Virus record (IMG/VR): IMGVR_UViG_2857429247_000001
Location: 49,386-113,385 of that record
Length of the DNA: 64,000 nt
Strand: one strand, 5' to 3'
From: a virus
Taxonomy: Duplodnaviria > Caudoviricetes
In this document: piece by piece, positions 1 to 47,723 of the stretch
Layout: each line of letters begins with the position of its first letter
Position numbering within the stretch: position 1 is the stretch's first letter
Notes under the pieces: generated by a model
What the model saw: only the letters and a program-made list of their open reading frames with translations
What the model was told of the DNA's origin: nothing
Databases searched by the model: none
Translations under genes and position numbers: made by a program

Positions 1-1764
1 ATGGATCCGGACGGGCTCGCCGAGCGCGCGCTCCAAGAGTTCGACGCCTGGGCCGCGTCCTTCGGCGAGACCCGCACCGAGCTCGAGTTGCAGCCCTCGG
101 GCCGCTACAAGCAGGTAACGCGCTTCGCCGAGTTCGTGAATGTGCCGGAGCTGATCAGCCAGTTCCGCGCCTTCGCCGACGTGGTCTCGGCCGAGGACCT
201 GCGCCAGCTCGTGCAGAGGCCCGACATCGCCGGCGGCAAGCGGCGGATCATCACCGCCCCGGCGACCGAGGCGTTCCGCGGGTATCAGCGCCACCTCGAC
301 GAGCGGATCAAGGCGATCGAGGCGCGCTCGGGCCGGCCGAAGCCTGGGGACGACATCATCCTGTCGGTGATCGGCGACGGGCGCCACGCCGCGATGGATC
401 TGCGCCTCGTGCTCCCAGGCCATCCCGACGAGCCGGAGAACAAGCTCAACCGGCTGGTGGCCGAGGTGCACCGCATCCACCTCGCGCACGCCGCGCAGGT
501 CTACCGGCAGCCGGACGGCTCGCCCTATGAGCGCCCCGGCGCGAGCCAGATGGTGTTTTCCGACCTCGGCACGCTCAACGCCGAAGCGCGCCGCGGCTTC
601 TCGGCCTATCGCTGGATCAAGGGCCGCCTCGTGCAACTCGGCGTGCCGGCCTCCGAGATCGCCTTCGTGCAGGACTACAAGGGCAGCCAGGCCAAGGCCC
701 GACTCTTCGCCGACATGCGCGCCGGGAAGGTGCGCATCGTCATCGGCTCGACCAAGAAGATGGGCACGGGCGTGAACGCGCAGAACCGCATGGTGGCGCT
801 GCATCACCTCGACGTGCCGTGGCTGCCCTCCGACATCGAGCAGCGCGAGGGGCGGATCGACCGCCAGGGCAATCAGAACCCGGTGATCGAGATCCTCGCC
901 TACGCCACCGAGGGCTCGATGGACGCCACCATGTGGCAGACGAACGAGCGCAAGGCCCGGTTCATCGCGGCCGCGCTCTCCGGCGACCGCTCGATCCGGC
1001 GCCTGGAGGATGTCGGCGAGGGCTCGGCCGATCAGTTCGCGATGGCCAAGGCGATCGCGAGCGGCGATCCGCGCCTGATGCAGAAGGCCGGCCTCGAGGC
1101 GGAGATCTCGCGGCTCGTGCGACTGCGCGACGCCCACCAAGACGAGCAACACTCCCTGCGCGCCCGGGTGCGGACCGCCGAGCGGGCGATCGCCGAGAAC
1201 ACCGCGGCCGCCGCAGCCCACCGCGCCGACATCGCCCGGCGCGAGCCGGCTGGGGAGGGGTTCCGGGCGGTCGTCGGTGGCCTCACCTTCACCGACCGCA
1301 CCGAGGCGGGCCGGGCGCTGCTCAAGGCGCTGCGCGATCTCGAGTTCAAGGTCGCCAATGGCCGGCCCGGTCGTGACCATCGGCGCGACCAGGACGTGGC
1401 GGTGGTGCGCGGCTTCACGGTCCACCACTGGTCGGCCCTGGAGCGGCTCGGCAAGGACAAGGACGTCGCGGTCGGCGAGATCGAGGTGATGATGTCCCAT
1501 CGCCCGATCAGCCTGCGGGGCAGCAGCGTGACGCCCGGCGCCGTGCTGTTCGACCAGATCGCCGAGGTGATCGACGGCCTCGACGGCCGGCTGTCGGCGG
1601 CCGAGCGGCGCATCGAGGCGGCGCAGGCCGAGATCGCCCGCGTCCGGCCGATGATCGGCCGGACCTTCGATCTCGAGGGCGAGCTCGTCGAGAAGCGCAC
1701 GCGGCTTGCCGAGATCACCGCGGCGCTGGCGAGCGACGACGTCGAAGAGGCGCGCGCGGCCTGA
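1..1764 (+). CDS. C-terminal part of a large SNF2-family helicase/methyltransferase (DarB-like), truncated by the window edge
   Basis: Helicase-C motifs QMVFSDL, GSTKKMGTGVNAQ, HHLDVPWLPSDIEQREGRIDRQGN, typical of DarB/N12-methylase-helicase polyvalent proteins. Confidence 0.85.
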   Translation: MDPDGLAERALQEFDAWAASFGETRTELELQPSGRYKQVTRFAEFVNVPELISQFRAFADVVSAEDLRQLVQRPDIAGGKRRIITAPATEAFRGYQRHLDERIKAIEARSGRPKPGDDIILSVIGDGRHAAMDLRLVLPGHPDEPENKLNRLVAEVHRIHLAHAAQVYRQPDGSPYERPGASQMVFSDLGTLNAEARRGFSAYRWIKGRLVQLGVPASEIAFVQDYKGSQAKARLFADMRAGKVRIVIGSTKKMGTGVNAQNRMVALHHLDVPWLPSDIEQREGRIDRQGNQNPVIEILAYATEGSMDATMWQTNERKARFIAAALSGDRSIRRLEDVGEGSADQFAMAKAIASGDPRLMQKAGLEAEISRLVRLRDAHQDEQHSLRARVRTAERAIAENTAAAAAHRADIARREPAGEGFRAVVGGLTFTDRTEAGRALLKALRDLEFKVANGRPGRDHRRDQDVAVVRGFTVHHWSALERLGKDKDVAVGEIEVMMSHRPISLRGSSVTPGAVLFDQIAEVIDGLDGRLSAAERRIEAAQAEIARVRPMIGRTFDLEGELVEKRTRLAEITAALASDDVEEARAA

Positions 1765-1803
1765 CAGTTCACGGGTCGAGCCCTGAACGCCTCGACCCGT
1801 GAA
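1764..1803. repeat. Phased octamer array (5 units), also forming a 13-bp inverted repeat (1768-1780/1791-1803)
   Basis: acagttca cgggtcga gccctgaa cgcctcga cccgtgaa. Confidence 0.75.
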
Positions 1804-1824
1804 AAAGATACGCCCACCCTCATT

Positions 1825-1911
1825 TTCCCTAGTGCCTTATCCAAGCGGCTTGGATAGAAAAGGACATCGGCACCGGGGCAGCGCCCCACTCCCCAGGGAG
1901 ACACCACCATG
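1825..1911 (+). promoter_or_regulatory. Promoter/leader cassette, family A copy 1 (TTCCCTAGTGCCT-N17-(-10)...CATCG...GGGC-NNN-GCCC-CTCC..GGAGAC..ATG)
   Basis: The 13-mer is identical to copies at 23882-23894, 25117-25129 and 31508-31520 (minus strand); palindrome tatccaagc-g-gcttggata at 1838-1856. Confidence 0.75.
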
Positions 1912-2484
1912 AGCAACCGCGGCCCCCTCGCCTGGACCACCACCGTCCTCCGCAGCCTCAAGGACGACCGCGCGGTCCGCGCCGACGTGCGCGAGCAGCG
2001 TCTCTCCGGCGGCCGGTTCAGCTGGCGCGGCGTCTCGAACCGCCGCTTCGTCACCACCCTCAAGCCGCGCGAACTGATGCCCCTCGGCTCGGTCGTCCTG
2101 GCTGTCTCCCGCAACGAGGTCGGACTCGCCTCCCTGGTCGCGGTCGCCGCCTTCGAGGGCGACGCGGCCGCCTTCCTCGCCTTCCGCGCCCAGGCCCACG
2201 CCGCCGGCGCCTGCGAGCTGCAGATCCACACCCTGGCCGACACCGCCGCCGACCGCGCCGCGATGGTCGCCGACCTGCTCCCCGGCGCGAAGCTGAAGGT
2301 CATCGCCGCGCCCGCGCCGGCCGCCACCGCCGCCTACGACCGCAAGGCGATCATGGCCGCCGCCTGCGCCGCCGCGAAGGCCCGGCGCGCCGAGACCGGG
2401 GAGGCCTGGACCGCCTGCCTCGGACCGGCGCTCAAGGCCGCTTGGAGCGAGGCGCGCGCCGCCCGCGCCGCCGCCCAGCACTGA
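1909..2484 (+). CDS. Hypothetical protein
   Basis: ORF with GGAG RBS and strong GC3 bias. Confidence 0.7.
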   Translation: MSNRGPLAWTTTVLRSLKDDRAVRADVREQRLSGGRFSWRGVSNRRFVTTLKPRELMPLGSVVLAVSRNEVGLASLVAVAAFEGDAAAFLAFRAQAHAAGACELQIHTLADTAADRAAMVADLLPGAKLKVIAAPAPAATAAYDRKAIMAAACAAAKARRAETGEAWTACLGPALKAAWSEARAARAAAQH

Positions 2485-2493
2485 GGATCCACG

Positions 2494-2841
2494 ATGCCCG
2501 CCCTCCAGCTCAGCTCCCACGCGGCCGTGCGGCGGCCGTCCGGCTGCATCGTGATCGCCTTCTCGCACGACGGGCGGGCCGAACCGCTGGGGCGGCGCAT
2601 CGTGGCGGTCCGGACGGCCGCGGAGGCGCGCCGCGCCTTCGACGCCTACGCGGCGGAGCTGCGCGCCACCGGCGCCAGCGCCCGGGCCGAGGGCGATCTC
2701 CTGCCCGGCGAGCGGGCGCCGCGCGGCTTCCGCGCCCTGGACCTGCGCACTTATGTGAACCTCGCCGCCTCGGCCGAGGCCGACGCGTTCACGCGTGAAG
2801 GCGTGGACCCGTCGATAGCTGATCTGGAGGGCCCGTTCTGA
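2494..2841 (+). CDS. Hypothetical protein
   Basis: ORF with GAGG RBS, operonic spacing. Confidence 0.6.
   Translation: MPALQLSSHAAVRRPSGCIVIAFSHDGRAEPLGRRIVAVRTAAEARRAFDAYAAELRATGASARAEGDLLPGERAPRGFRALDLRTYVNLAASAEADAFTREGVDPSIADLEGPF
2784..2815. repeat. Phased octamer array (4 units)
   Basis: cgcgttca cgcgtgaa ggcgtgga cccgtcga. Confidence 0.65.
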
Positions 2842-3347
2842 TGGGCGCGCCATTCGTCCTGCCCGCCGGTGCGGGCCTTGAGATCCCCGCGCCCTTCGCG
2901 CTGCCCGATTTCGACCCGTTCGACCCGAACACCTTCCCAGAGGAGTCGCCGGACGACGCGTGCTTCATCAGCCTGTCGAACGACCACGACCTCCACGCAA
3001 TCGTGGACCGGCAGGACTTCGCGTGGGCGAGGGCGCTCACGTGGTGCCACACCTACGGCTCGGGCGAGTTCGTCGAGCTCTTCCCGGACTACTGGGTCAG
3101 CCCGCGGCCGGATCACATCTACGCCCGCAACTGCGCCGGCGGCACGACGCGCTGGCTGCACCGCGAGATCCTGATCCGGGCCGAGGGCAAGCCCCGGTTC
3201 GCGCGCGCCGTGGGCGACCATAAGAACGGCAACACCCTGGACTGCCGCCGCCGGAACCTGCGCTGGGCGACCCCCTCGCAGAACGCGCGCAACACCCCGC
3301 GCTCGGCCGTCCGCAAGCGCTTCCTCAAGCAGATGGGGCTCCGATGA
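2841..3347 (+). CDS. HNH endonuclease family protein
   Basis: LHREI...GDHKNGNTLDCRRRNLRWAT..QN HNH_3-like signature. Confidence 0.85.
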   Translation: MGAPFVLPAGAGLEIPAPFALPDFDPFDPNTFPEESPDDACFISLSNDHDLHAIVDRQDFAWARALTWCHTYGSGEFVELFPDYWVSPRPDHIYARNCAGGTTRWLHREILIRAEGKPRFARAVGDHKNGNTLDCRRRNLRWATPSQNARNTPRSAVRKRFLKQMGLR

Positions 3348-4201
3348 TCGACACCTCCACGCTCAAGCCCGTCCAGCGCGACCATTTCCCGAATTATGCG
3401 GGCGTCAAGGACATCGACGACGCCCTGGCGGCCGAGCTGGAGGCGGCCGGCATCACGGTTCACCGGTTCGGCTTCCTCAAGGACGGTCGGCGCGAGGTCG
3501 ACACCGAGGTAGTGGGCGATCTCCACGGCTGGGGCTTCCGGCGCGCCTGGTACTATTGGGTCGCCGAAGGTCCTGGCATCGAGTTGGCCGCCGCCGAGAA
3601 GCTGCACGCCGCCCATGGGCAGCATGTTCGCGTGAACGGCCACTGCGGCTGCCCCAGCCCGCGCGAGCAGTTCAACGGCTTGGCCGTCGGCTCCTACCAC
3701 GTCGACCGGCCGTCCGGGTTGAAGGCCCTCGCCGACACGATCCGCGAACTCGTCGAGCGCGCCGCGTCCCCTGCGGGGCCTCGGGACGGAAGCTTTCAGG
3801 CGCGCAACGCCGCCTGGATGGCGAAGGCCTTCGAGGGCGATGCGACCGATCTGGCCGAGCGGGTGGCCCGGTTCGGCGAGGAGTCGCTGGAGCTTCAGCA
3901 GGCGCTCGGCCTGACGCGCGAGGATGCGCACCGGCTCGTCGACTATGTCTTCGACCGGCCGACCGGCTCACCGGCCACGGAGTTCGGCCAGGCGCATTCG
4001 ACGCTGGTGCTCCTCGCCGCCTTCACCGGCCACGACCTGCAGGCCTGCGGGGAAGCTGAACTGGTCCGCGTGTCCACGCCCGAGTTCATCGCGAAGCTGC
4101 GGGGCAAGCGAGCGACCCGACATGGGCGCGGCCCCCTGCCGGGCTTCTCGGCGCCGGGCACGAGCGGGCCGACAGCCCCTGTGGAGGCGGATCGTGGGTG
4201 A
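3344..4201 (+). CDS. Two-domain protein with a C-terminal MazG/NTP-pyrophosphatase-like domain
   Basis: ERVARFGEESLELQQA...EFGQ all-alpha NTP-PPase-like acidic pattern; N-terminal domain unknown. Confidence 0.55.
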   Translation: MIDTSTLKPVQRDHFPNYAGVKDIDDALAAELEAAGITVHRFGFLKDGRREVDTEVVGDLHGWGFRRAWYYWVAEGPGIELAAAEKLHAAHGQHVRVNGHCGCPSPREQFNGLAVGSYHVDRPSGLKALADTIRELVERAASPAGPRDGSFQARNAAWMAKAFEGDATDLAERVARFGEESLELQQALGLTREDAHRLVDYVFDRPTGSPATEFGQAHSTLVLLAAFTGHDLQACGEAELVRVSTPEFIAKLRGKRATRHGRGPLPGFSAPGTSGPTAPVEADRG

Positions 4202-4598
4202 GGCGCGCTTCTTCGTCGTCGACTTCCGTAAGGAATGGACCCGGCAGCCGTACATCACGCTCTGGGGGCCTGACAGCCGCGGCTACAACTGGTCGCTGTC
4301 GCACGCCGGCCGGTACACCGCCGAGGAACTGGACCGCTCGGCCGGCTATCACACGCGGCGCCGGTACGTCGCCAGCCGGGGCGCCTACGTCGGCCCGTGG
4401 GAGCGCTTCGGCGTGCCCTGCGAGGTTCTGGAGCGCCTTGGCTCCGAGCCCGACACCGAGGGCCGCTGGCGCCTCGAAAATGGCGGTCGCCCCATCGTCC
4501 GCAACTCGGCTGCTGTCCGCAAGCTGCTGACCGCCAAGCGCTACGTGCCGAAGCCCGCCGAAGCCAATCCCCACCCCTTGAGCGGAGGGAACGCATGA
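4194..4598 (+). CDS. Hypothetical protein
   Basis: GTG start after GGAGG; overlaps neighbours as in a coupled operon. Confidence 0.6.
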   Translation: MGEARFFVVDFRKEWTRQPYITLWGPDSRGYNWSLSHAGRYTAEELDRSAGYHTRRRYVASRGAYVGPWERFGVPCEVLERLGSEPDTEGRWRLENGGRPIVRNSAAVRKLLTAKRYVPKPAEANPHPLSGGNA

Positions 4599-5146
4599 GC
4601 GCGGTCATCTCACCCTGCGGACTGTACCGCTACCGGCTGGAGCGGAGCATCGGAGGCTTCCTGGCCGGGCCGACCGTGGCCTGGATCATGGTCAACCCGT
4701 CGACCGCCGACGCCGAGACGGATGACGCGACGATCCGGAAGGTGATCGGCTTCTCCGAGCGCCTTGGGTTCGGCGACATCGTGGTCGGCAACCTGTTCGC
4801 CTTCCGGGCAACGGACATCCGAGAACTGCGGACCGCTGCTGACCCCATCGGCCCGTTCGGAGGGGACTACCTTCGCGCGATCATGCGCGGGGCCGAGAAG
4901 GTGATCGTCGCCTGGGGGCCGTGCGCGAAGTTGCCTCGTTGGCTGCGCAGCCGCTGGATGGAAGTCGCCGGCATCGCAGAGGCGAATAGCATCCCGCTTT
5001 GGTGCCTCGGCACGGCGCAGGACGGACATCCGCTGCACCCGCTGATGCTCGGTTACGAGCGCCGGCTGAGCCTCTGGCAGCGGCCCGACCAAGCCTCCGC
5101 GCCCACCCCTTCCCCCGACCCGGCGAGCGGCGAGGCGGCGGTATGA
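4595..5146 (+). CDS. DUF1643 domain protein
   Basis: SAVISPCGLYRYRLER, WIMVNPSTADAETDDATIRK, NLFAFRATD, HPLHPL. Confidence 0.85.
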   Translation: MSAVISPCGLYRYRLERSIGGFLAGPTVAWIMVNPSTADAETDDATIRKVIGFSERLGFGDIVVGNLFAFRATDIRELRTAADPIGPFGGDYLRAIMRGAEKVIVAWGPCAKLPRWLRSRWMEVAGIAEANSIPLWCLGTAQDGHPLHPLMLGYERRLSLWQRPDQASAPTPSPDPASGEAAV

Positions 5147-5511
5147 TGACCCCTTTCATCAGCCCATGGCCAGCGCATGTCCCTCACATCGGCGGCATCC
5201 GTATCGTCGCCAGCGAGGCCATGCCGACAGACACGGTCGAAGACTGGTCACAGGTGCGCTCGCCATCGCGGGCGGCCCGACGGCAACGCCAGGGGCATCG
5301 CCAGCGGATCATCTATCGGCAGGTGCCTAGGCGCGAAATCCTGCACATGCCGGCGCAGAACCTGCTGTTCATGCACCCAGTCGTGTTGCGCGAGTTCCAA
5401 GCGGCGCTGAAGCGGCGCGAGGCGACCAACGACTATTGGGCCGCGGTGAAGAAGGCGCTTCTGGACGTCGGGTGCCGGCAAGCCGCTGCCAGCATGGGAG
5501 GCTCACGATGA
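5143..5511 (+). CDS. Hypothetical protein
   Basis: ATGA overlap with the upstream gene. Confidence 0.55.
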   Translation: MMTPFISPWPAHVPHIGGIRIVASEAMPTDTVEDWSQVRSPSRAARRQRQGHRQRIIYRQVPRREILHMPAQNLLFMHPVVLREFQAALKRREATNDYWAAVKKALLDVGCRQAAASMGGSR

Positions 5512-5581
5512 GCTTCGACCCTCCATCCCTTGCCCTTGCCGCCCTCCTCGGCGCGCTCGCGATCACTGCGGGAGACCGTTC

Positions 5582-5833
5582 ATGAACGACGCCTTCACCT
5601 TGCTGTGGCGCTGGATCGTCGGACCGCGCCTCTACCGGCTCCAATTCTTCATGCGCTCCGGCAACCAGTTCATCCTGGACGGCGTCGAGAGCTACGAGAT
5701 CGAGAACCGAGGCGACGAGATCTTCCGACTGCACCTGAAGCAGAAAGGGAGCCGCAATCGGCTGCTCGTGAAGACGATCGCTCTCGCTCAGATTGAAGCG
5801 ATTGTGGTCCTGTCCGGAAAGACCCCGGCATGA
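5582..5833 (+). CDS. Hypothetical protein
   Basis: ORF with GGAG RBS. Confidence 0.6.
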   Translation: MNDAFTLLWRWIVGPRLYRLQFFMRSGNQFILDGVESYEIENRGDEIFRLHLKQKGSRNRLLVKTIALAQIEAIVVLSGKTPA

Positions 5834-5988
5834 CCGTGACCGCCTCCCTCGCCCTGGCCACCGGTCTGCTCGCCTACGCCGCCGCATCAGGTGCTTTCGT
5901 TGGCCACCTCTTGGCCCCGCCTATCCGCGCAGCCGGTCAACGACGGACGTGGGGACGGGGACTGATCCGAAATCCGAACCGATAGGAG

Positions 5989-6462: not shown

Positions 6463-6517
6463 CCGCCTTCCCGACCACACCCGCACCCATACCGCGAGAA
6501 CAGAGGAGCCCTGAGCT

Positions 6518-7192: not shown

Positions 7193-7196
7193 GACC

Positions 7197-7397: not shown

Positions 7398-7399
7398 CC

Positions 7400-14249: not shown

Positions 14250-14756
14250 ATGGACCAGATCCGCTCTCAGATCTTCGCCGGCGACGCCGCGCGTCTGCGT
14301 CGCTTGGGCGAGATGCTCATCCTCATCGCCGACCTGCCGGACAGCGGCGGTCACGTCTTGGTCGCCGACCGCAGGACGCGCGTCGAGGTTTACGACCTGA
14401 TCCTGCAGCATCGCGGCACCGCGGTGCTGTCCGGCACGAAGGTCTGCCTGACCGAGTCGGCCGACGACGAGCACGCCGCGGTCGGCGGCATCGATCCGGA
14501 CTATGTCTTCCTCGCTCCGGGCTACACGGCGCACTGGGTCATCGCCCGCGGCGGCCAGCCGAAGCCGGCGAAGGTGGCCTCGACCGGCCCGTCCGGCGTC
14601 TCTCCGCTGGGCGCGCTGGGCCCGAAGGGCCATCGGATCGAGGTGATGACGCGGTCCGAGGTGCCAGGCGCCTTGCGCCACGCTTGGCCGAGCCGTTCGG
14701 CGAGCCCGCCACCTGTGCCGGCGCCGGGCCCCTGGCATCGACCCGTGGTCGCCTGA
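14250..14756 (+). CDS. Hypothetical protein
   Basis: ORF with RBS. Confidence 0.55.
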   Translation: MDQIRSQIFAGDAARLRRLGEMLILIADLPDSGGHVLVADRRTRVEVYDLILQHRGTAVLSGTKVCLTESADDEHAAVGGIDPDYVFLAPGYTAHWVIARGGQPKPAKVASTGPSGVSPLGALGPKGHRIEVMTRSEVPGALRHAWPSRSASPPPVPAPGPWHRPVVA

Positions 14757-14789
14757 ACGAGTTCACGCCTGCGGCCCTGACCCGGTGAA
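14734..14789. repeat. Phased octamer array (7 units, degenerate)
   Basis: ggcatcga cccgtggt cgcctgaa cgagttca cgcctgcg gccctgac ccggtgaa. Confidence 0.6.
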
Positions 14790-17127: not shown

Positions 17128-17603
17128 TGCACCGCCTCTTCGAGGCGCTCGTCTTCAGCCTCGTCCTCCTGCCCCTCGCGCCCGCGGCCATCGTGCTGTG
17201 GGTCACGCGTCGAGACGTGAACCCGTGAACGGTGTCCTCGTCGCCGCCGCGGTCGCGCTGATCAGCGCGCCGCCCCCGCCTCCGCCCCCGCCGGGGCCGA
17301 AGCGACCACCCCTCCCCATCATCCTGGCAGCCGCGCCCGCGATCATCGATCGCCGCCGGCCGACCTACAGACCGGTGCACTGATCCATGGATTGGAAGTC
17401 GTTCAACCTCGGCCTCTGGCGCGGGGCGCATGGTCGCGCGCGTCACGTCCCGCTCGCCTCCGACATCGACGAGACGAGCTACGCGGCCGGCTTCGCCCAC
17501 GGCAAGCGCCACGCCCGCCTGATCCGCGCCGGCAAGAAGCCGCCGGAATAAGCCTCGGCCGGTCCCCGGCCGCACCACACCTCCCGCTCCCGGGCCCCTC
17601 ACC

Positions 17604-23290: not shown

Positions 23291-23338
23291 TGCACGAACG
23301 CGTTCACGCCTCGATTGATCGAAGCGTGAACGCCTGAA
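23291..23338. repeat. Phased octamer array (6 units) at the convergent queC / cassette junction
   Basis: tgcacgaa cgcgttca cgcctcga ttgatcga agcgtgaa cgcctgaa. Confidence 0.75.
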
Positions 23339-23812: not shown

Positions 23813-23924
23813 CTCGGTGTCTCCGTCAGGAGGTGGGCGCTGCCCGTTCGATGACTTGAACATACGGCGTACCCAGCCGATAGGCACTAGGGAATTTACG
23901 CCTGAATGTATGAAAGCGTGAACT
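23810..23924 (-). promoter_or_regulatory. Family A promoter/leader cassette copy 2, with octamer array 23891-23922
   Basis: 115-bp near-identical direct repeat with 25045-25159 (about 12 mismatches by eye); GTGCCT-N17-TATGTT. Confidence 0.85.
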
Positions 23925-25047: not shown

Positions 25048-25159
25048 ATCGGTGTCTCCGTCTGGAGTTGGGCGCTGCCCGTTCGATGACTTGAACATAC
25101 GGCGTGCCCCGCCGAGAGGCACTAGGGAATTCACGCCTCGACGCCTGAAAGCGTGAACT
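25045..25159 (-). promoter_or_regulatory. Family A promoter/leader cassette copy 3, with octamer array 25126-25157
   Basis: Direct repeat of 23810-23924. Confidence 0.85.
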
Positions 25160-26665: not shown

Positions 26666-28280
26666 CCCGCTTTATTCACCAGGGTTTGGCTGGCGACGTG
26701 TTTTGAGCTGAAGGCGAGCGGGATCGTGCGTCTGTCCTGACGCGTATGGATCTGGTTGTGCTGTCGGCGCTGGAGGGACGGGAGCGGTGTCGATGGGGCA
26801 TCACGCCCCGTGGTTCAGGCTGGCGCTGGGGCGAGTGCGCCCGCGATATGGCGCAGCAAGTCGGCCTCGGGACAGGCGGCGGCGAAGGCGAGACGAACAC
26901 GGGCAGTGGTCTCGTGGATGCGAGCCCCAAGCTTGAGCAGGCGCAGGCGGATCGTCGCGAACTCGGCCTTGGCCAGGCGATGGGGAGCCGGGATGGCGTC
27001 GCGCACGGTCAGCATCAGCCAATAGGCGGCGGTGTGCAGCACGAGCCGCATCTGGTTGGCGGCCGGATGCCGGCAGGAGGTGCGGTCGGAAGCGAGCTGG
27101 CCCTTATGGAGCTTGATCAGGTTCTCGGCCTGTCCGCGGGCGCAGTACAGCTCGGCGTAGAGCCATTCGGGCGTACCGGTGGCGATGTTCGTGACCACGT
27201 AGCGGATGTCGAGGCCAAGGCGGGTCGCCTCGATGCGGGCGGCGACGCGGCGGTGCTGCCGCCAGGATTTGGCTGCGTGCGTGGTCTCAGCAAAGCCGCG
27301 CACGGCATCTGTGTTGCTGAGGGCCCGCTCGACCCGGATGTGATCGGCGGTCGGCTCGACCTTGGCGGTGAGCGACTTGGTGCCGGTCAGGCCGAAGACG
27401 TAAGCGACGTCGTTGTCCTCGCACCAGTCCATCGCTTCGGGCCGCCCGTAATGGCCGTCGCCACGGATCGTGATCGCGGTCGTCGGCCAGTGTCGGCGGA
27501 TCGCCCGGACCAGACGACGCAGATGGCCCCGGACTTCGCGACCCGAAGGCGTCTTGCCCGGCCGCAGGATCATCGCCACCGGGCGCGAGGTGGCGGTGTC
27601 GTAGACGTGGATGGGGAGAAAGCAGCGTTCGTCGTGGTGGGCGTTGAACAGCGACAGTTGCTGCTGGCCATGGACCACGTCGCAGGTGTCGTCGATATCC
27701 AGCGTGACAGCCGCCGGTGGCGCGGCGTAGCTGGCGCAGTAGAGGTCGACCAGCACCCGTCCGAGCCGGATCAGGTCACGCAGGCCCGGCGTGTTCTCCA
27801 GCCGCGAGACGGTGGGCTGGCTCATCAAGTCGCGTCCGCTGTCGGGTAGGCGACCACAGGCGAGCTTGAAGGCGGGATCGACGCGCAGGTGATCGAGGTC
27901 GTCGGCATCCTCGTACCCGCAGGCGATGGCCAGGATGCGCGCCAGCAGGATCTCGGGCAGAGGATGCACGATCCGGCTCGGGTCACGCCGGTCGGGGATC
28001 ACCGCGGCGAGCTTCTCACCGATCTGCATCCGCCGGGCAGCCTGAGCGAGCAACAGGACGCCCCCGTCCGAGGTCAGGCGTCCGCCGTCGAAAGCAGCTG
28101 TGAGCTTCTTGCCTCGAACCGATGGAAACGCGAACGGCAGACACGTAGGATCGGACATGGCGGGCGTGGCGGGCTCGATCTGGTCTGAGGACTTGGCGTC
28201 AGCACCCAATCCCTAAGCCACATCAATGCTTTACGCTACGCTCGCCACCACAGATCCACTGCCCTCGTGAATAAGACGGG
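26666..28280 (-). mobile_element. IS1380-family insertion sequence (1615 bp)
   Basis: Imperfect terminal IRs cccgctttattcac / gtgaataagacggg; 4-bp target duplication CTAT at 26662-26665 and 28281-28284. Confidence 0.93.
26815..28158 (-). CDS. IS1380-family DDE transposase
   Basis: FDGGRLTSDGG, GYEDADD..LR.DP, SQPTVSRLEN, LDIDDT, RGDGHY, YCARGQAENLIK. Confidence 0.95.
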   Translation of the reverse strand: MSDPTCLPFAFPSVRGKKLTAAFDGGRLTSDGGVLLLAQAARRMQIGEKLAAVIPDRRDPSRIVHPLPEILLARILAIACGYEDADDLDHLRVDPAFKLACGRLPDSGRDLMSQPTVSRLENTPGLRDLIRLGRVLVDLYCASYAAPPAAVTLDIDDTCDVVHGQQQLSLFNAHHDERCFLPIHVYDTATSRPVAMILRPGKTPSGREVRGHLRRLVRAIRRHWPTTAITIRGDGHYGRPEAMDWCEDNDVAYVFGLTGTKSLTAKVEPTADHIRVERALSNTDAVRGFAETTHAAKSWRQHRRVAARIEATRLGLDIRYVVTNIATGTPEWLYAELYCARGQAENLIKLHKGQLASDRTSCRHPAANQMRLVLHTAAYWLMLTVRDAIPAPHRLAKAEFATIRLRLLKLGARIHETTARVRLAFAAACPEADLLRHIAGALAPAPA

Positions 28281-28681: not shown

Positions 28682-28776
28682 GGGCTTCCCCCCAAGTATC
28701 GCTTGACGTAGAACACAAAACGAGAACTTCCCGCAGCGGCCCCGGCGATGAACCGGGGCCGTTTCGCATTTCAGGG
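28682..28776 (+). promoter_or_regulatory. Family B motif copy 2 with terminator-like hairpin
   Basis: GGGCTTCCCCCCAAGTATCGCTTGACGTA; hairpin 28736-28762 then ttcgcatttcaggg. Confidence 0.75.
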
Positions 28777-30790: not shown

Positions 30791-30822
30791 AGCGTGCACC
30801 CGTGAAGGCATGCACGCGTGAA
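30791..30822. repeat. Phased octamer array (4 units)
   Basis: agcgtgca cccgtgaa ggcatgca cgcgtgaa. Confidence 0.7.
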
Positions 30823-31439: not shown

Positions 31440-31520
31440 CGCTTTGTCTCCCTCGAGTCGGGCGGCGCCCGTTGCGATGGACTGACCATGCCGCAGTCCC
31501 GGCCGAGAGGCACTAGGGAA
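31437..31520 (-). promoter_or_regulatory. Family A promoter/leader cassette copy 4
   Basis: TTCCCTAGTGCCT-N17-CATGGT...CATCG..GGGC-GCC-GCCC-GACTC..GGAGAC. Confidence 0.75.
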
Positions 31521-33929: not shown

Positions 33930-33969
33930 GCCCTTCACCCATCGACGGTCTCACGCGTGAACGGGTGAA
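33930..33969. repeat. Phased octamer array (5 units) abutting the family B motif
   Basis: gcccttca cccatcga cggtctca cgcgtgaa cgggtgaa. Confidence 0.7.
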
Positions 33970-33973: not shown

Positions 33974-34071
33974 GGGCTTCCCCCCAAGTATCGCTTGACG
34001 TATAGACCAACACGCAAACATCGATCAGGCGCCGGCGGGACCACCCGCGCGGCGCCTTTCTCGTTTCGGGG
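33974..34071 (+). promoter_or_regulatory. Family B motif copy 3 with terminator-like hairpin, upstream of the portal gene
   Basis: 36 bp identical to 47724-47759; hairpin 34027-34057 then ttctcgtttcgggg. Confidence 0.8.
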
Positions 34072-38428: not shown

Positions 38429-38467
38429 CCGCCCTCCCCCTTCGACCCGGCTCCGCCGGCCCCGTCC

Positions 38468-38494: not shown

Positions 38495-38516
38495 GTGCCG
38501 TCAGGAACGACCCTTC

Positions 38517-40055: not shown

Positions 40056-40125
40056 TATTCGTTGCGGCGGGCATCTGCTCCGTTATGATCGGTTGATCTT
40101 CTGGACGCTCAACGGTCCCGCCGCG

Positions 40126-40989: not shown

Positions 40990-41033
40990 CCGATCCGATA
41001 GGGGTCGGCGGCCGCCTCCTTGATGAGGACGAG

Positions 41034-41564: not shown

Positions 41565-41610
41565 TCCACGCCCGCCCGCGCCTCCGCGGGATCTCCGGAA
41601 GGTCTCAGCG

Positions 41611-42234
41611 ATGCCCCTGCCCACCGGGACCTCTCCGGACGATCTCGTCGACGTCGCGACCGCACGGGCCTGGATCGGCCTGCCGCCGCTCGCCGACGGC
41701 GCCACCGACCCCGTGATGCAGCTCGCGATCACGGCAGTCTCGCAGCGGATCGCGACGTGGTGCTCGCGCACCTTCGTCCCGACGGCCGCCACCGAGGTCT
41801 ATGACGGCGTCGGATCGGCCCTGCTGTGCCTGCGCCGCTTCCCGATCATCAGCCTGGACAGCGTCGTCGTCGACGGCGTCCCGGCGCCGCTGATCGAGGC
41901 AGGCAGCATGGCCTACGGCGTCTCGCACGATGGCCGGCGCACGCTGAGCTACCGCGGCGGCGAGTTCAGTCGCGGGCGCCAGAACGTGCTGATCGGCTAC
42001 ACGGCCGGACTCGATCCGATCCCGGCCGATATCGGCATGGCCTGCCTCGACTGGCTCGCGGCTGGCTACCTCGCGCGCGGGCGCTCGCCCGACGTGGTGG
42101 AGCGCAAGGACGGTGACTCCTCCGAGAAGTACGCCGCCTCCAGCGCGACCGTGACGATCCGGGGGCGCACCGTGCCGATGCCGGCCTCCGTCTATGCGAC
42201 CCTGTCGCGAATCCAGGACAACGTGCCGGTCTGA
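41611..42234 (+). CDS. Head-tail connector/adaptor protein
   Basis: CSRTF...EVYDG, LRRFPI.SLDSV, YTAG...IPADI..AC. Confidence 0.8.
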   Translation: MPLPTGTSPDDLVDVATARAWIGLPPLADGATDPVMQLAITAVSQRIATWCSRTFVPTAATEVYDGVGSALLCLRRFPIISLDSVVVDGVPAPLIEAGSMAYGVSHDGRRTLSYRGGEFSRGRQNVLIGYTAGLDPIPADIGMACLDWLAAGYLARGRSPDVVERKDGDSSEKYAASSATVTIRGRTVPMPASVYATLSRIQDNVPV

Positions 42235-42240
42235 TCCGCC

Positions 42241-42603
42241 ATGCCCCCGTTCTACTTCGAGCGGACGATCACGATCGCCCGCCCCGGGATCCGCGCCGGC
42301 ATCGCGCCGGTGGGCAAGCAGGGCTACGGCGGCTCGTCCCGTGCGGACGAGGTCGTGCGCTACACCGACATCCCGGCGACGATCCAGTATTCCGCGACCG
42401 CGCGCACCACCGGCGTGCAGCTGCCCTCCGACGCGCGCGTGCTCACCGACTGGAAGATCATCGTGCCCGTCGGCTACCTGCCCGACGACGCGGTGATCGA
42501 GCGCGACATCGTCACCTCCGACCTGGGCAAGCGCTACCAGGTGCTCGCCGCGCGCCCCAGCCGCCTCGGCTTCCAGATGCGCGCCTCGCTCCTGCAGGTC
42601 TGA
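42241..42603 (+). CDS. Putative head-closure (stopper) protein
   Basis: Position; RTITI.RP...DIV.SDLGKRYQV. Confidence 0.65.
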   Translation: MPPFYFERTITIARPGIRAGIAPVGKQGYGGSSRADEVVRYTDIPATIQYSATARTTGVQLPSDARVLTDWKIIVPVGYLPDDAVIERDIVTSDLGKRYQVLAARPSRLGFQMRASLLQV

Positions 42604-42638
42604 CCGCTGGCCCGAGACGCCCCCCTTCAGGATCGACC

Positions 42639-42839
42639 ATGGCCGACACCGTATCGCTTCGCGTGCGCTTCACGCTGCGCTGGTGGGCGCGTCCGCTCGT
42701 GCGGGCCGCGCTCATCGCCGCGCTGCTCCGCGTGCCGGTCGACATCGACCGGCTGGGGCAGCTGATCGCCACCCACGGCGCGCGCTACCACGTCGAGAGC
42801 CGCGCGGCCGACCGCGTGAGCGAGACCGCCCGTGGCTGA
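42639..42839 (+). CDS. Small hypothetical protein
   Basis: AGGA RBS, operonic. Confidence 0.45.
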   Translation: MADTVSLRVRFTLRWWARPLVRAALIAALLRVPVDIDRLGQLIATHGARYHVESRAADRVSETARG

Positions 42840-43683
42840 CGAGAGCGAGGTCGAGGACGCGCTCTGCGACTTCATCGTCGCCACGTTGTACCCCGGCGGC
42901 ACCGAGGGGCTGGACGCGTCCGCGCCGAGCCTCGCTGGCGCACCCGCGAAGGTCCAGCGCGGGATGCCGCTCTCCCTCGATCTCGAGGCGATGATCGCGG
43001 CCGGTGTGATCGATATCGCGGTTGCGGCGCGCAACGGCGTGGAACGGGTGACGACGCGCTATTCGCGCAAGTGGGAGATGCTGATCCCGCCTGTGCACAC
43101 CATCACGGTGACGCCGCCGAGCCAGACGATCACCCTCGGCGGCACCGTCTCGGTGCCGCAGAACGTGGCTCTCGGCTGGGGGCCGCACGCGCACACGATC
43201 CATGCCGTCCAGGCCGGCGAGAGCCTCCAAGACATCGCCGCGGCGCTCGCCGCCGCCCTGGTCGCGCAGGGCGCGCCGGTCGTGGCCTCGGGCACGAGCC
43301 TCACCGTCGCGTCGGGCCCGGACCTGCGGGCGCGTGTCGGCGGCTTCGGGACGATGGCGCGGGAGCTGAAACGGCAGGACAAGTCGTTTCAGATCACGAT
43401 CTTCACGCCGACGCCGGAGCTGCGCGACGACGTCGCCAAGATCATCGATCCCGCTCTGGCGAACATCAATTTCCTCACACTTCCCGACCGCACGCGAGGA
43501 CTGGTCCGTTACGAGCGGACCATCGTCATCGACACGTACGAGAAGATGACGGAATACCGTCGCGATCTGTTCTTCTGGGTAGAGTACCCGACGATCACGA
43601 CGATGCAGGCGCCGGAGGTGATCGCGATCGGATCGACCAGCGGGTCGGACGACACGCCTCGCCCCCAACGCTTCTTCCCCTGA
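42832..43683 (+). CDS. Putative tail terminator/neck protein
   Basis: Position upstream of sheath; YRRDLFFWVEYPT. Confidence 0.6.
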   Translation: MADESEVEDALCDFIVATLYPGGTEGLDASAPSLAGAPAKVQRGMPLSLDLEAMIAAGVIDIAVAARNGVERVTTRYSRKWEMLIPPVHTITVTPPSQTITLGGTVSVPQNVALGWGPHAHTIHAVQAGESLQDIAAALAAALVAQGAPVVASGTSLTVASGPDLRARVGGFGTMARELKRQDKSFQITIFTPTPELRDDVAKIIDPALANINFLTLPDRTRGLVRYERTIVIDTYEKMTEYRRDLFFWVEYPTITTMQAPEVIAIGSTSGSDDTPRPQRFFP

Positions 43684-43697
43684 TCAGGAGACGCCGC

Positions 43698-43976
43698 ATG
43701 CCCGGCATCGAACTCACCGTCCTGCACGACTTCGGCCAGTACGTCCGCGGGATGTTCATCACCGCCGAGGAGGAGATCCTGGCGGTCCTCGGTAGCGAGA
43801 ACGCCAACCGCGTCACCAAGGTCGCCGCCGGCACCCACGCGGCGGCCGAAGCCGCGGTCGCCAAGGTCGAGGCCGTCGCCGCCGCCGTCGAGTCCGCGCC
43901 CGCGAAGGTCGAGGCGGCCGCGAAGGCTGCCGTGGCCGACGTGAAGGCCGCTGCGGCTGACGGCGCGAAGGCCTGA
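43698..43976 (+). CDS. Small tail-associated hypothetical protein
   Basis: AGGAG RBS, Ala/Lys-rich tail. Confidence 0.6.
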   Translation: MPGIELTVLHDFGQYVRGMFITAEEEILAVLGSENANRVTKVAAGTHAAAEAAVAKVEAVAAAVESAPAKVEAAAKAAVADVKAAAADGAKA

Positions 43977-43980
43977 TCCG

Positions 43981-44262
43981 ATGCGGCGCACGCGCACCCG
44001 CCAGGAGCGGAGACACGTGGATCGGGGCTGCCCCGCCGAACTGCGGCGGCGCGCCTACCAGTCCCTGATGCTGGGCATCCGGCAGCAGGGCATCCTGCGC
44101 GGCGAGCGGCTCCCCGATCTCGTCGCGCGCGTCTGCCCCTCGGTTCTCTCCTTCGTGGCGCTGGAGGGCTACCGGGCCGATCTCGATCTGCCCGAGAACA
44201 CGCACGAGGCCCTGTGCCGCGGCGTGATCGCCATGGAGCTGCGCCGGCTCCCCGCGGCCTGA
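43981..44262 (+). CDS. Hypothetical protein
   Basis: Operonic; start may be the GTG at 44017. Confidence 0.5.
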   Translation: MRRTRTRQERRHVDRGCPAELRRRAYQSLMLGIRQQGILRGERLPDLVARVCPSVLSFVALEGYRADLDLPENTHEALCRGVIAMELRRLPAA

Positions 44263-44396
44263 TCGGCCGTCATAGCGGCCTCGCGCCGCCCTCCTCACAC
44301 CAGGCCCTCTCCAGGCCCTCAGATCCGGCCCGCCCGCGGCGCCGGACCCGCGCGCACGCGCCGACGGCTCTCGCCGTCTCGGAGTGATCCTCTTCC

Positions 44397-45929
44397 ATGC
44401 CCCAGGTCGTCCAGCAGGGCCAGATCAACACGGCCGCGCTGTCGGTCGCGGACCTCTACGTCACGATCGTCCCGCCGCAGCTCCTCATCAACGGCGTCGC
44501 CACCAACGTCATCGGACTCGTCTGCACGGCGAGCTGGGGGCAGGTGAACGGCTCGCCCGGCATCGTCGGCAGCTATGCCAGCCACGCGCTCCAGTACGGG
44601 CCGATGCAGGCGCGCAAGTACGATGGCGGGACCGCGGTCTTCAACATCTACCAGCAGGGCAATCAGCCCGTCGTGATGGTCTCCCGCGTCACCGATGGCA
44701 GCGACGTCGCGGCCACGGTGATCGTGCAGACGAACTGCCTGACCCTCACCTCGAAGTTCACCGGTTCGCTCGCCAACAAGGACCAGGCCTCGATTGGGCC
44801 CGGCTCGGCGGTCGGAACCTTCAAGGTGGTGCTCACGCGGCCCGGCCAAGTCGGCGAGGTGTTCGACAACATCGCCGGCACCGGCAATGCCCTGTGGGTG
44901 AACATCGCCAACGCGATCAACCTCGGGCAGTTCGGCGCCCGCGGGCCGTCGAACCTGTTCATCGCCACGGCCGGCGCCGGCACGACCGCCCCGACCACGG
45001 CGGTCTACACGGCGTCCGGCGGCACCGACGGCGCCGACACCGTGACCGGCTCGACGCTGCTCGGCGTCGACAGCCTGCCGCGTTCCGGCCTCTACGCGCT
45101 GCGCGGGTCGGGCGCCCAGATCGGCATGCTGACCGATTGCGACGACTCGACCACGTGGACGGCTCAGATCGCCTACGGTCTCGGCGAGGGCACCTACATG
45201 GTGGCATGCGGGCCGTCCGGCGATACGATCAGCAACGCGGTCTCGGTGAAGGCGTCGGCCGGCATCGACAGCTACGCGCTGAAGCTGATGCTCGGCGACT
45301 GGGTCTACTTCAATGACACGACCAACGGCCAGATCCGTCTGACCTCGCCGCAAGCGTTCGTCGCCGGCCAGCTCGGCAATCTCGCGCCGAACCAGTCGAC
45401 CCTGAACAAGCCGATGAACGGCATCGTCGGTACGCAGAAGTCCGTCACCGGAGTGAAATACACCAACGCCGAGCTTCAGGTGCTGGCCAATGCCGGCATC
45501 GATGTCATCTGTAACCCGATCCCGTATGGCTCGGTCTTCGGCTGCCGCAACGGGCGCAACACGTCGTCCAACGCCTCGATCCGCGGCGACAACTACACGC
45601 GTATGACCAACTTCATCGCGTTCACGATCGCATCCGGGCTCGGCAAATACGTCGGCACGCTCAACACGCCGGAGCAGCGCCTGGATGCGAAGGCGACGCT
45701 CGATCTGTTCTTCTTCAACGTCCAGCAGCAGGGCCTGATCGGCTCGCGCTCCGGGCCGGACGCGTGGAACACGGTGCTGGACGACTCCAACAACCCGGAC
45801 TCGCGTACCTCGCTCGGCTACGAGCAGGCCGACGTTCAGGTGAAGTACCAGAGCGTGACCGAATTCTTCCTGGTGAACATGCAGGGCGGCCAGACCGTCA
45901 CGATCACCAAGACGACGACCACGAACTGA
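44397..45929 (+). CDS. Tail sheath protein
   Basis: 510 aa; DLYVTIVPP, IGLV.TASWG, GGTDG, GLYAL, NYTRMTNFI, VKYQSVTEFF. Confidence 0.9.
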   Translation: MPQVVQQGQINTAALSVADLYVTIVPPQLLINGVATNVIGLVCTASWGQVNGSPGIVGSYASHALQYGPMQARKYDGGTAVFNIYQQGNQPVVMVSRVTDGSDVAATVIVQTNCLTLTSKFTGSLANKDQASIGPGSAVGTFKVVLTRPGQVGEVFDNIAGTGNALWVNIANAINLGQFGARGPSNLFIATAGAGTTAPTTAVYTASGGTDGADTVTGSTLLGVDSLPRSGLYALRGSGAQIGMLTDCDDSTTWTAQIAYGLGEGTYMVACGPSGDTISNAVSVKASAGIDSYALKLMLGDWVYFNDTTNGQIRLTSPQAFVAGQLGNLAPNQSTLNKPMNGIVGTQKSVTGVKYTNAELQVLANAGIDVICNPIPYGSVFGCRNGRNTSSNASIRGDNYTRMTNFIAFTIASGLGKYVGTLNTPEQRLDAKATLDLFFFNVQQQGLIGSRSGPDAWNTVLDDSNNPDSRTSLGYEQADVQVKYQSVTEFFLVNMQGGQTVTITKTTTTN

Positions 45930-46050
45930 TCTCGCAGCCGGGGCGCGTCTTCGCCCCGGCCCTCAGCCCTGCCCTTCATTCCGCCACGCCCTGACGGCGC
46001 CGCCCCCCCGTGCGCGCCGCCGTCCGCGTGCGCATCTGCCAGGGATCCCC

Positions 46051-46479
46051 ATGGCCGGAGATTTCAACACCGGGCGCGACATCACCGTCGTGATCACCGG
46101 TCCGAACGGCACCGTCACGCTCAACTACGTGACGTCGTTCGACCGCAAGCAGAACGTCACGAAGCTCAAGTCGAGCTGCATCGACGGCATCACACGTCAC
46201 GAGAACATCCCGGACGACTGGAGCGGCTCGATCGGCCTCGACCGCGCCGGACGCGAGGTCGACGATCTGATCTACGCCCTCGAGGCCGGTTATTTCGCCG
46301 GTCAGAAGACCGCGAAGGGCACGATCACCGAGACGATCCAGGAGGTCGACCAGTCGATCTCCCAGTGGCGCTATGCGCCGTGCGTATTCGACCTCTCCGA
46401 CGCCGGCAAGTGGGCCAAGGACTCGAAGGTCGAGCCCAAGCTCGAGTTCGCCGCGAGCCGCCGCACCCTCGTCAAGTGA
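46051..46479 (+). CDS. Tail tube protein
   Basis: 142 aa directly after the sheath gene. Confidence 0.8.
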   Translation: MAGDFNTGRDITVVITGPNGTVTLNYVTSFDRKQNVTKLKSSCIDGITRHENIPDDWSGSIGLDRAGREVDDLIYALEAGYFAGQKTAKGTITETIQEVDQSISQWRYAPCVFDLSDAGKWAKDSKVEPKLEFAASRRTLVK

Positions 46480-46562
46480 TCGGCAAGGCCGGCGCGCCCG
46501 CGCGCCGGCTCCCCGATCCCTTGGCAGTCCCCTGCCCTTCAACCTGCCCCAGAGAGACGCCC

Positions 46563-46976
46563 ATGTCGAAAGTCACCGTGCGCTCCGGCGCCTCCCGAGC
46601 TGCCGCGCCCGAACTCGCCGCGCTGCCGGATGAAGAGTTCTTCGTCGACGCGAAGGGCCGCCGCATCGCCATGCGCACCCTGAGCATCCTTGATCAGATG
46701 CGCCTGCTCCGGATGCTCGGCGGCGAGAACGGGCCCTACTACACGTTCTGCATGCGTCTCGCCCGCGTTGCCTCGATCGACGGCGACCCGATCCCGGTCC
46801 CGCAGAAGGCCATCACGTTCGAGCACCTCGCCCAGCGCTTGGGTGACGCCGGCGTGATCGCGCTGACGATGCACCTCGCCGGCGGCGAGGAGGAGGACGA
46901 GGAGGCAGATCCGGTCGCCGCCAAGGCCGAGGCCGAGGCGCGGGACAAGGCGGAGCGGGCCGCCGTAAAAAACTAG
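46563..46976 (+). CDS. Tail assembly chaperone (gpG-like)
   Basis: Position after the tube gene; ends ...AVKN* on a slippery sequence. Confidence 0.8.
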   Translation: MSKVTVRSGASRAAAPELAALPDEEFFVDAKGRRIAMRTLSILDQMRLLRMLGGENGPYYTFCMRLARVASIDGDPIPVPQKAITFEHLAQRLGDAGVIALTMHLAGGEEEDEEADPVAAKAEAEARDKAERAAVKN

Positions 46977-47167
46977 TCGAGCACCCGGGCTTCATCGCCT
47001 CCGTCGCCCTGATCACCTCCGGCGTGCCGAAGGAGATCGTGTTCGGGTCGGGCCAGACCTACCCCGAACTCGAGGCCATTGAGCGCGAGGCGTGGCTCAT
47101 CGCGACCGGGATCGCCCAGGGCGCGAAGTGGGACTGGAGCTCGTGGTGCTGGAAGAAGGAAGGGTGA
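46967..47167 (+). other. Programmed -1 frameshift site (A AAA AAC) and gpT-like extension
   Basis: The -1 frame is open from 46973 to the TGA at 47165-47167 (LVEHPGFIAS...WDWSSWCWKKEG) and has no ATG start of its own. Confidence 0.8.
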
Positions 47168-47170
47168 GCG

Positions 47171-47617
47171 GTGTCGCGCAACTTCGCCTCGATCGGTGAC
47201 TTCGTGCGCTTCATGAGCCGCCAGGTTGCGACGCTCCCGGCCGCGCAGCGGCATGCGCTGGCCGAGGGCGCCGAGATCGTCTTGGAGGAAGCAAAGAGCT
47301 ACCCAGGCGAGTATCAGACCGGCTGGCCAGCGTTGGCGGAAGCCACGAAGGACCGGCGCGCGGCCGCGGGACACGCGCCCGACGAGCCTCTGAAGGTGAC
47401 CGGGGAGTTGCAGGCCTCCTATCGCAGCAAGGTGTCAGACGCGCACCACGCCGCCGTCGGCTCCGACAACGACAAGGCGCTCTGGCAGGAACTCGGAACC
47501 GCGACGATCCCGCGGCGCCCCGTACTGGCCTTGGCCGGGTCCACGAAGGAAGCCGAGGTCGTTCGCACGATCGGCCACGTCATCGCCCGCCACATGGTGG
47601 GCGGATCGAACGCCTAG
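47171..47617 (+). CDS. Virion morphogenesis protein (HK97 gp10-like)
   Basis: W.ALAEAT...PLKVTGELQAS...VGS...A.WQELGT..IPRRPVL. Confidence 0.8.
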   Translation: MSRNFASIGDFVRFMSRQVATLPAAQRHALAEGAEIVLEEAKSYPGEYQTGWPALAEATKDRRAAAGHAPDEPLKVTGELQASYRSKVSDAHHAAVGSDNDKALWQELGTATIPRRPVLALAGSTKEAEVVRTIGHVIARHMVGGSNA

Positions 47618-47691
47618 AGCAGTCGTCGAATTCGAGCCGTGGGGGTGCCTCTGACACCTCTGCGGCTCGTTGCGCGTTTGTGGGCCGGGTG

Positions 47692-47723
47692 AGCGTGAAA
47701 ACGTCGACGCGTGAACGCGTGAA
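47692..47723. repeat. Phased octamer array (4 units) abutting the family B motif
   Basis: agcgtgaa aacgtcga cgcgtgaa cgcgtgaa. Confidence 0.75.

Follow-up and report, generated by a model that had tools for sequence, protein, structure and literature searches.

Across the genome of a Methylobacterium-type phage of the Caudoviricetes (IMG/VR record IMGVR_UViG_2857429247_000001; 113,385 bp, approximately 70% G+C), we found approximately 80 copies of a 4-bp box in about 20 arrays of 3–6 boxes each, held in a strict 8-bp phase. Most arrays lie between genes, their boxes are conserved in a diverged sister phage, and the largest array lies upstream of a partition operon. On balance, we lean towards reading the arrays as coating sites of ParG-type anatomy that would be bound by a ParA-linked, predicted ribbon–helix–helix (RHH) protein and act both as partition sites and as operators or roadblocks. 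The starting point was the final 64 kb of the record (64,000 nucleotides, positions 49,386 to 113,385; hereafter the window), for which a sequence-only reading had listed nine such arrays and proposed that a single element-encoded protein coats them as a distributed centromere, a global repressor or both. Positions refer to the window unless marked as genome positions.

The window encodes terminase, portal and prohead protease together with a tyrosine recombinase, an insertion sequence (IS) transposase and folE (GTP cyclohydrolase I). The remaining 49 kb encodes a CI/Cro-like pair, DNA methylases, a dCMP deaminase, TerB, TerC, a HigB-like toxin, a MucR/Ros protein, an SNF2 helicase, ISL3 and TnpB elements and a ParA-like ATPase; 84% of the genome is coding. 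Because one contig of a Methylobacterium metagenome-assembled genome (MAG) joins the end of the record to its start, the phage molecule is circular or circularly permuted.

Intergenic octamer arrays hold a strict 8-bp phase

Measuring genome-wide how far apart GTGAA words lie on the same strand, we counted 11 pairs at 8 bp, 3 at 16 bp and 6 at 24 bp, compared with 0–2 pairs at every other distance up to 48 bp. The 20 pairs at these three distances contrast with a mean of 0.53 and a maximum of 2 in 60 third-order Markov simulations. We also defined a strict run, independently of the consensus in the sequence-only reading, as successive octamers with T at position 5 and A at position 8 (TNNA boxes). 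Genome-wide, 13 period-8 runs of at least four boxes were observed where 0.05 were expected, and 19 of at least three boxes where 2.8 were expected. All but two of these 19 arrays are intergenic, in a largely coding genome (P ~4e-12). As a background, other viral loci of ~1.7 Mb in all (900 kb and 800 kb) had next to no such phasing, with 0 and 5 GTGAA pairs at 8 bp, and 5 and 0 four-box runs, respectively. Thus, by both counts, the phased octamer arrays are real.

Among the 75 boxes in strict arrays of at least three, TGAA or its complement TTCA accounts for 63%, compared with 17% of TNNA words in the genome, and TCGA and TGCA make up 19% and 9%; these are the four cores named in the sequence-only reading. 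The 4-bp spacers are GC-rich, with a mean of C-G-C-G, and one layout, TTCA-TCGA-TGAA-TGAA, recurs. TTCA, TCGA and TGAA are mutually symmetric, and some arrays therefore double as inverted repeats. The boxes have no uniform polarity with respect to the flanking genes.

The arrays stay clear of the inner parts of the head and tail operons and sit at the heads of those operons. Others flank the giant helicase gene at its two ends, surround mucR, adjoin conserved promoter-like motifs or lie in small gaps of early operons, and many arrays start immediately 3′ of a stop codon. RNA folding was significant for 4 of 20 arrays (z −2.8 to −4.2), namely the hairpin-forming arrays at genome positions 45929, 51149 (window 1764), 52169 (window 2784) and 72684 (window 23299), and z was approximately 0 for most. 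Some arrays are pure direct repeats that are unable to pair, such as the one at genome position 19448 (z +2). With boxes in either orientation and no RNA structure in most arrays, the signal would be read in double-stranded DNA and not in RNA.

Boxes are conserved in a sister phage

A homologue of the RHH-like protein described below led to a sister phage in an uncultured Methylobacterium MAG (8-Mb assembly), whose contigs C10, C80 and C98 together tile the entire phage genome. Identity is 65–85% over most of the genome and 99.4% in the virion module. In the whole MAG, the GTGAA-N3-GTGAA pattern (GTGAANNNGTGAA) has 16 matches, 15 of which fall on the three phage contigs; the sixteenth is on a 10-kb contig without similarity to the phage, and a reversed control pattern matched once. 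The comparison with shuffled and host DNA that the sequence-only reading had called for thus came out clearly in favour of the arrays.

Conservation in a related phage, the other computational check that it had named, likewise failed to refute the idea. At all 15 array sites with an alignable homologous junction, an array is present in both phages. Between the two phages, identity by register was 0.68, 0.67, 0.78 and 0.67 across the spacer, 0.94, 0.87, 0.81 and 0.94 across the box, and 0.74 in the flanks; conservation of the box T and A relative to the spacers was significant (Fisher P = 3e-8). Permitted boxes interchange between the phages, for example TCGA to TGAA, and indels within arrays are mostly exactly 8 bp. 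Box-specific conservation and 8-bp indels therefore have the look of a footprint left by a factor that reads the boxes and needs their phase, suggesting that selection acts on the boxes and not on the spacers.

The record G004 (IMGVR_UViG_2900261899_000001, loci L279–L284; 105 kb, 66% G+C, 80% complete) is a distant relative that shares the helicase, integrase, terminase, portal, capsid and tail genes, with a portal that is 69% identical. It contains 0 TNNA runs, compared with 3 expected. Beyond this 105-kb record, searches of viral contigs with TerL, portal and ParA returned only distant array-free kin, and megablast of 20 kb of sequence against the phage collection gave no match.

Two further observations come from the comparison with the sister phage. 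The 99.4%-identical virion module comprises window 41022–64000 plus genome 1–4656, aligned with MAG contig C10, which suggests that a module of approximately 28 kb was recently exchanged between two diverged phage-plasmids. Three different insertion elements in the phage genome, a DDE_Tnp_1_4 transposase (window 26815–28209, minus strand), an ISL3 transposase (genome 21464–22756) and TnpB/OrfB_IS605 (genome 32581–33774), are all missing from the sister phage.

A predicted par operon encodes the candidate binder

The sequence-only reading had predicted that a parA gene and a small RHH gene, with the same array upstream, would be found elsewhere on the element. A predicted locus of this kind lies outside the window, and both phages carry its upstream array. 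Its first gene (genome 8615–9265, minus strand) encodes a 216-amino-acid ParA-like ATPase with MipZ (3e-13), AAA_31 and CbiA domain matches, a phrog_164 match at 1.5e-28 and 41% identity to a Methylobacterium plasmid ParA. It has the build of a small ParA of ~200–220 amino acids, with no N-terminal helix–turn–helix (HTH) and a deviant Walker A motif in an N terminus that reads GQKGGPGKST. The next gene, which overlaps it (genome 8304–8615, minus strand), encodes a protein of 103 amino acids with an arginine-rich, disordered N-terminal half. Its C-terminal region matches Antitox_RHH (E 1.8e-4 in all four homologues), the only RHH-type match in the six frames of the genome. The largest array, of six boxes, is 101 bp upstream of the parA start and is kept in the sister phage with box-preserving changes; as in type Ib cassettes, a repeat array thus precedes the operon.

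An AlphaFold2 monomer model of the 103-amino-acid protein has two confident C-terminal helices and a disordered stretch at residues 1–50. Its ESM Atlas neighbours all belong to the RHH clan, with ParG in 25% of the members of the top cluster, and a PDB sequence search returned chance matches only. The protein has only a handful of homologues, including P0002 (81% identity, on a 79-kb contig) and P0004; these are just 70–81% identical overall, and the RHH region and four arginines of the tail are invariant. The closest plasmid RHH homologue, from pMNOD03 (45% identity), has a different β-strand and no arrays within 2.5 kb. An RHH profile search of viral and metagenome contigs found nothing, and a conserved 21-mer from the par upstream region had two metagenome matches, both unrelated. 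A sub-threshold Pfam match and language-model evidence together predict an RHH protein, and we regard it as the best candidate and the most likely binder of the arrays.

Three other DNA-binding proteins of the phage were considered as array binders and rejected: the CI-like HTH_3 repressor, because a separate 19-bp palindrome marks its promoter and three further sites; the OmpR-type product of gene 38, because it is missing from the array-bearing sister phage; and MucR, because array-free G004 retains a homologue (48% identity). No RHH homologue was found in the 80%-complete G004 record. This phylogenetic profile favours the putative RHH protein over MucR as the binder.

Individual arrays and adjoining motifs

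Of the nine window arrays listed in the sequence-only reading, seven are strict runs of four or five boxes, one (33930–33969) has a deviant box and one (14734–14789) is degenerate; the list also missed a three-box array at 17206–17229. The array at 1764–1803 (TTCA TCGA TGAA TCGA TGAA) starts at the stop codon of the 1703-amino-acid helicase gene, 106 bp from the next gene, and is also an inverted repeat with a 13-bp stem. At 2784–2815, the four boxes TTCA TGAA TGGA TCGA lie within the final 60 nt of a 115-amino-acid open reading frame, immediately upstream of an HNH gene, and include the palindrome TTCACGCGTGAA. The degenerate array at 14734–14789 has a TNNA box in four of seven octamers, with a longest strict run of two, and its homologue in the sister phage is better formed. 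The array at 17206–17229 (TCGA TGAA TGAA, with GTCA before them) is near-identical in the sister phage. Five boxes (TTCA TCGA TCGA TGAA TGAA) form a hairpin-capable array between convergent genes at 23299–23338; it had been reported from 23291, but the first octamer there contains no box.

Two arrays abut the GGCACTAGGG motif: 23891–23922 (TTTA TGAA TGAA TGAA), next to the copy at 23883–23892, and 25126–25157 (TTCA TCGA TGAA TGAA), next to the copy at 25118–25127; the latter array separates a divergent LPD29 gene from folE. The boxes TGCA TGAA TGCA TGAA at 30791–30822 occupy a 79-bp gap between two minus-strand genes. Two further arrays abut the 30-bp motif GCTTCCCCCCAAGTATCGCTTGACGTATAG. At 33930–33969 (TTCA TCGA cTCA TGAA TGAA), four good boxes and the deviant CTCA lie 14 bp past a stop codon and next to the motif copy at 33976–34005, upstream of the portal gene; at 47692–47723 (TGAA TCGA TGAA TGAA), the motif copy is at 47726–47755. 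Outside the window, arrays at genome 36079–36114 and 36633–36676, directly 5′ and 3′ of mucR, are conserved in the sister phage. We discounted an array inside gene 34 (genome 25533), which is not conserved and shows substitutions of the coding-sequence type, and a three-box run at genome 23368, which has no homologue and is probably due to chance. A Gp49/HigB-like toxin gene (L081:5023–5394, minus strand; E 3.8e-20) has an array 176 bp upstream, beyond which lies a 1.3-kb stretch without called genes.

All five promoter-like neighbours that had been described are present, GGCACTAGGG at three array sites and GCTTCCCCCCAAGTATCGCTTGACGTATAG at two. Arrays thus adjoin conserved promoter-like motifs at five window sites, and another array lies upstream of parA. 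The GGCACTAGGG core at 1827–1836 (minus strand), 23883–23892 and 25118–25127 ends a conserved cassette of ~60 bp, found at 23855–23896, 25090–25131, 31509–31518 and 1827–1836 (minus strand), approximately 70–80 bp upstream of the start codons of divergent genes. In three of the four cassette copies an array lies on the gene-distal side of GGCACTAGGG, abutting it at two and ~23 bp away at 1827–1836. The GCTTCCCCCCAAGTATCGCTTGACGTATAG motif occurs at 28684–28713, 33976–34005 and 47726–47755, two of the three copies being directly 3′ of an array; it is perfectly kept in the sister phage, and its flanks diverge. No intrinsic terminator (stem plus T-run) was found near arrays in the scanned regions.

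A 19-bp palindrome, TATCCAAGCGGCTTGGATA, at 1838–1856 represents an operator type separate from the arrays. Outside the window it recurs at genome 25375–25393, 45976–45994 and 21248–21266, and one of these copies (L082:10375–10393) separates the CI-like (HTH_3) gene from the Cro-like gene; in all, it marks the CI/Cro site and three other upstream regions. The palindrome is probably the operator of the immunity repressor. Its half-site is similar to a DnaA box, and one phage gene product (genome 19927–20469) carries a DnaA C-terminal domain.

Proposed roles: partition, transcriptional control or both

The arrays have the anatomy of ParG-type sites: degenerate tetramers, 4-bp spacers, both orientations and direct read-out of the box. 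We propose that each box (TGAA in either orientation, or symmetric TCGA or TGCA) would be bound by one RHH dimer that touches its neighbours, and because dimers would contact neighbouring dimers, runs of 3–6 boxes would be coated cooperatively. The binder would be the 103-amino-acid protein encoded directly after the ParA-like ATPase. With the phage maintained as a plasmid-prophage, coated arrays would form partition sites that engage ParA. They may also tune or silence transcription units as operators or roadblocks, a role that we propose because arrays adjoin promoter-like motifs and gene junctions. The dual role is favoured by where the arrays sit: at operon heads, promoter-like motifs, helicase-gene ends, mucR and gaps in early operons. 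That one RHH protein couples plasmid-prophage segregation to transcription control over the whole genome through approximately 20 arrays that form a distributed centromere and, at the same time, operators or roadblocks is possible, and we put it forward tentatively.

Several observations weigh against coating by the ParA-linked protein. Its Antitox_RHH match scores 22 bits against a cut-off of 27.2 bits, Pfam ParG (PF09274) gave no match at E ≤ 1 in the six-frame genome and RHH_1 gave none either, and the AlphaFold2 monomer is poor overall (predicted local distance difference test score 61.6). With ~20 arrays and ~60 usable gaps, an array would stand beside the par operon by chance in approximately one of three cases, and the sister phage does not keep a second par array that lies 3′ of the RHH gene. 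The joint absence of arrays and RHH protein comes from a single record that is 80% complete, and dozens of unannotated genes are likewise present in the sister phage and absent from G004. Scans of array regions with E. coli-type promoter consensus sequences detected no promoter, and the adjoining motifs are at most putative promoters. Known type Ib centromeres are at one locus or at three promoters, and we know of no precedent for ~20 dispersed RHH partition sites.

The arrays might instead be operators or roadblocks of another phage DNA-binding protein that silences the genome in the manner of stoperators, with the ParA/RHH pair unrelated to them or confined to the array at its own promoter. 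Small uncharacterised proteins or gene 15 (phrog_15967) would be candidates. Like stoperators, the arrays lie in short intergenic gaps of early, accessory and late-promoter regions (PMC6550527). Most window proteins have no Pfam match, the phylogenetic profile of the RHH gene is shared by the dozens of unannotated genes just mentioned, and the par array is also 290 bp upstream of gene 15, which diverges from parA. However, 4-bp boxes of either orientation that recur every 8 bp are typical of RHH dimers, as in ParG and MetJ, and not of HTH repressors, and the six-frame search gave no second RHH protein. The sole recognisable repressor, the CI-like HTH_3 protein, has the distinct 19-bp palindrome, and box orientation relative to transcription is mixed, unlike that of stoperators. 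We therefore consider another binder unlikely, if still a serious contender. A much smaller chance falls to the MucR/Ros zinc-finger protein (genome 36187–36600, L083:6187–6600) acting on the arrays as an H-NS-like silencer. Its ROS_MUCR match is strong (E 1.9e-38), its gene is flanked by the two conserved arrays given above, and TNNA boxes are the most AT-rich feature of those flanking gaps. MucR, however, prefers AT-rich DNA without a strict 8-bp register, whereas the phage arrays have spacers rich in GC, and it is the T and A of each 4-bp box that are under selection; moreover, G004 has kept a MucR homologue but no arrays.

Very unlikely, too, is an action in RNA, in which the arrays would be terminators, attenuators or processing hairpins and the 8-bp phase a by-product of stem symmetry. 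The four strong hairpins fit this idea, as do the post-helicase hairpin, which is retained in the sister phage despite an 8-bp insertion, and the many arrays that begin directly 3′ of stop codons. Yet folding scores near zero for most arrays, direct repeats that cannot pair, the lack of detected terminator-like stems with T-runs and the mixed orientation relative to transcription all speak for a DNA signal, and conservation falls on the box T and A and not on paired columns. Least credible of all is that the arrays are selfish or neutral microsatellite-like repeats without function. Box number does differ between the phages by whole 8-bp units, as slippage predicts, but array positions are conserved at 15 junctions, the boxes are under apparent purifying selection, the arrays are confined to intergenic DNA, and the spacers are heterogeneous, so that the repeat units are not identical.

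Relation to known systems

The closest likeness is to the type Ib partition system of plasmid TP228, ParF/ParG with its parH centromere and OF operator, in which one ParG RHH dimer binds each ACTC box, boxes are direct and inverted with 4-bp spacers, and coating is cooperative (PMC3130281). The flexible tail of ParG stimulates its ParA partner (PMC3130281). The phage arrays share the 4-bp boxes, the 4-bp spacers, the 8-bp period and the use of both orientations, and, as at TP228, arrays are upstream of a gene for a small Walker-type ParA that is followed by one for a protein of ~100 amino acids with an arginine-bearing flexible tail and a predicted C-terminal RHH domain. By contrast, the box is TGAA, TCGA or TGCA instead of ACTC, the spacers are GC-rich instead of AT-rich, and ~80 boxes are spread over ~20 arrays and 113 kb, compared with 20 boxes at one locus. 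Unlike ParG, the phage protein does not match Pfam ParG.

A second parallel is the pair of omega (an RHH-type ParB) and delta (a ParA) of pSM19035, in which omega binds six parS arrays at promoters and at least four contiguous repeats are needed to activate ParA (PMC9499535). Contiguous short repeats of mixed orientation are common to both systems, and 13 arrays here have 4–6 boxes. In pSM19035 a single RHH protein binds the centromere and also controls several promoters, the dual role that we propose for the phage. The phage arrays differ in having an 8-bp period and a TGAA-type box instead of the 7-bp heptad WATCACW, and 3–6 boxes at ~20 sites instead of 7–10 heptads at three promoters (six sites by duplication); they also differ in their phage context and in having many sites at junctions inside operons.

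Cluster A mycobacteriophages (L5, Bxb1 and RedRock) carry approximately 20–30 stoperators, most of which lie in short gaps between genes and some away from promoters (PMC6550527). Some cluster A phages are extrachromosomal, with parABS and 8-bp-repeat parS sites (PMC7157519). The sequence-only reading had cited tandem octamers bound by RHH-type ParB in these phages; 8-bp-repeat parS is indeed found in RedRock, but an RHH-type ParB was not confirmed there (PMC7157519). The phage arrays resemble stoperators in being ~20 sites dispersed in short gaps of a temperate phage genome. They differ from them as multi-box phased arrays of mixed polarity, compared with single asymmetric 13-bp sites that are bound in one orientation by the immunity repressor, and the CI-like repressor here appears to have a different operator.

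Partition-protein sites that are scattered over a replicon and also affect transcription occur in KorB/IncC of RK2 and SopB of prophage N15. KorB and N15 SopB are HTH proteins of the ParB family that act on single palindromes, unlike the phased box arrays with a candidate RHH binder described here. In MetJ, RHH dimers bind tandem 8-bp metboxes cooperatively; MetJ is a host metabolic regulator with 2–5 metboxes per operator and no link to ParA.

Two viral contigs unrelated to the phage (L133:1022–11423 and L142:230–4149) also contain dispersed tandem octamers that end in GTGAA, in 3–6 copies and both orientations. The units are TTAGTGAA in L133 and GAGTGAA in L142, where they separate capsid, connector and tail-completion genes. 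No RHH protein was found in either record, each of which is 41% complete. These contigs hint that the array design may be more widespread in phages.

Both the box grammar and the notion that a partition protein may also regulate globally have precedents. On small plasmids, RHH partition proteins are known to bind a single cluster of repeats or a few clusters at promoters; what appears to be new here is the scale and setting, with approximately 20 conserved RHH-type arrays over a large phage-plasmid. If our reading is correct, the RHH partition design would extend to a whole-genome network on a 113-kb phage-plasmid and would stand as an RHH analogue of KorB and stoperators. The 8-bp box grammar, the sister phage and the array-free relative provide natural mutants for tests, and phased TNNA boxes offer a search pattern for similar systems in high-GC phages. 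The arrays would then provide a simple model that links the inheritance of a large temperate phage to the silencing of its early, accessory and late units.

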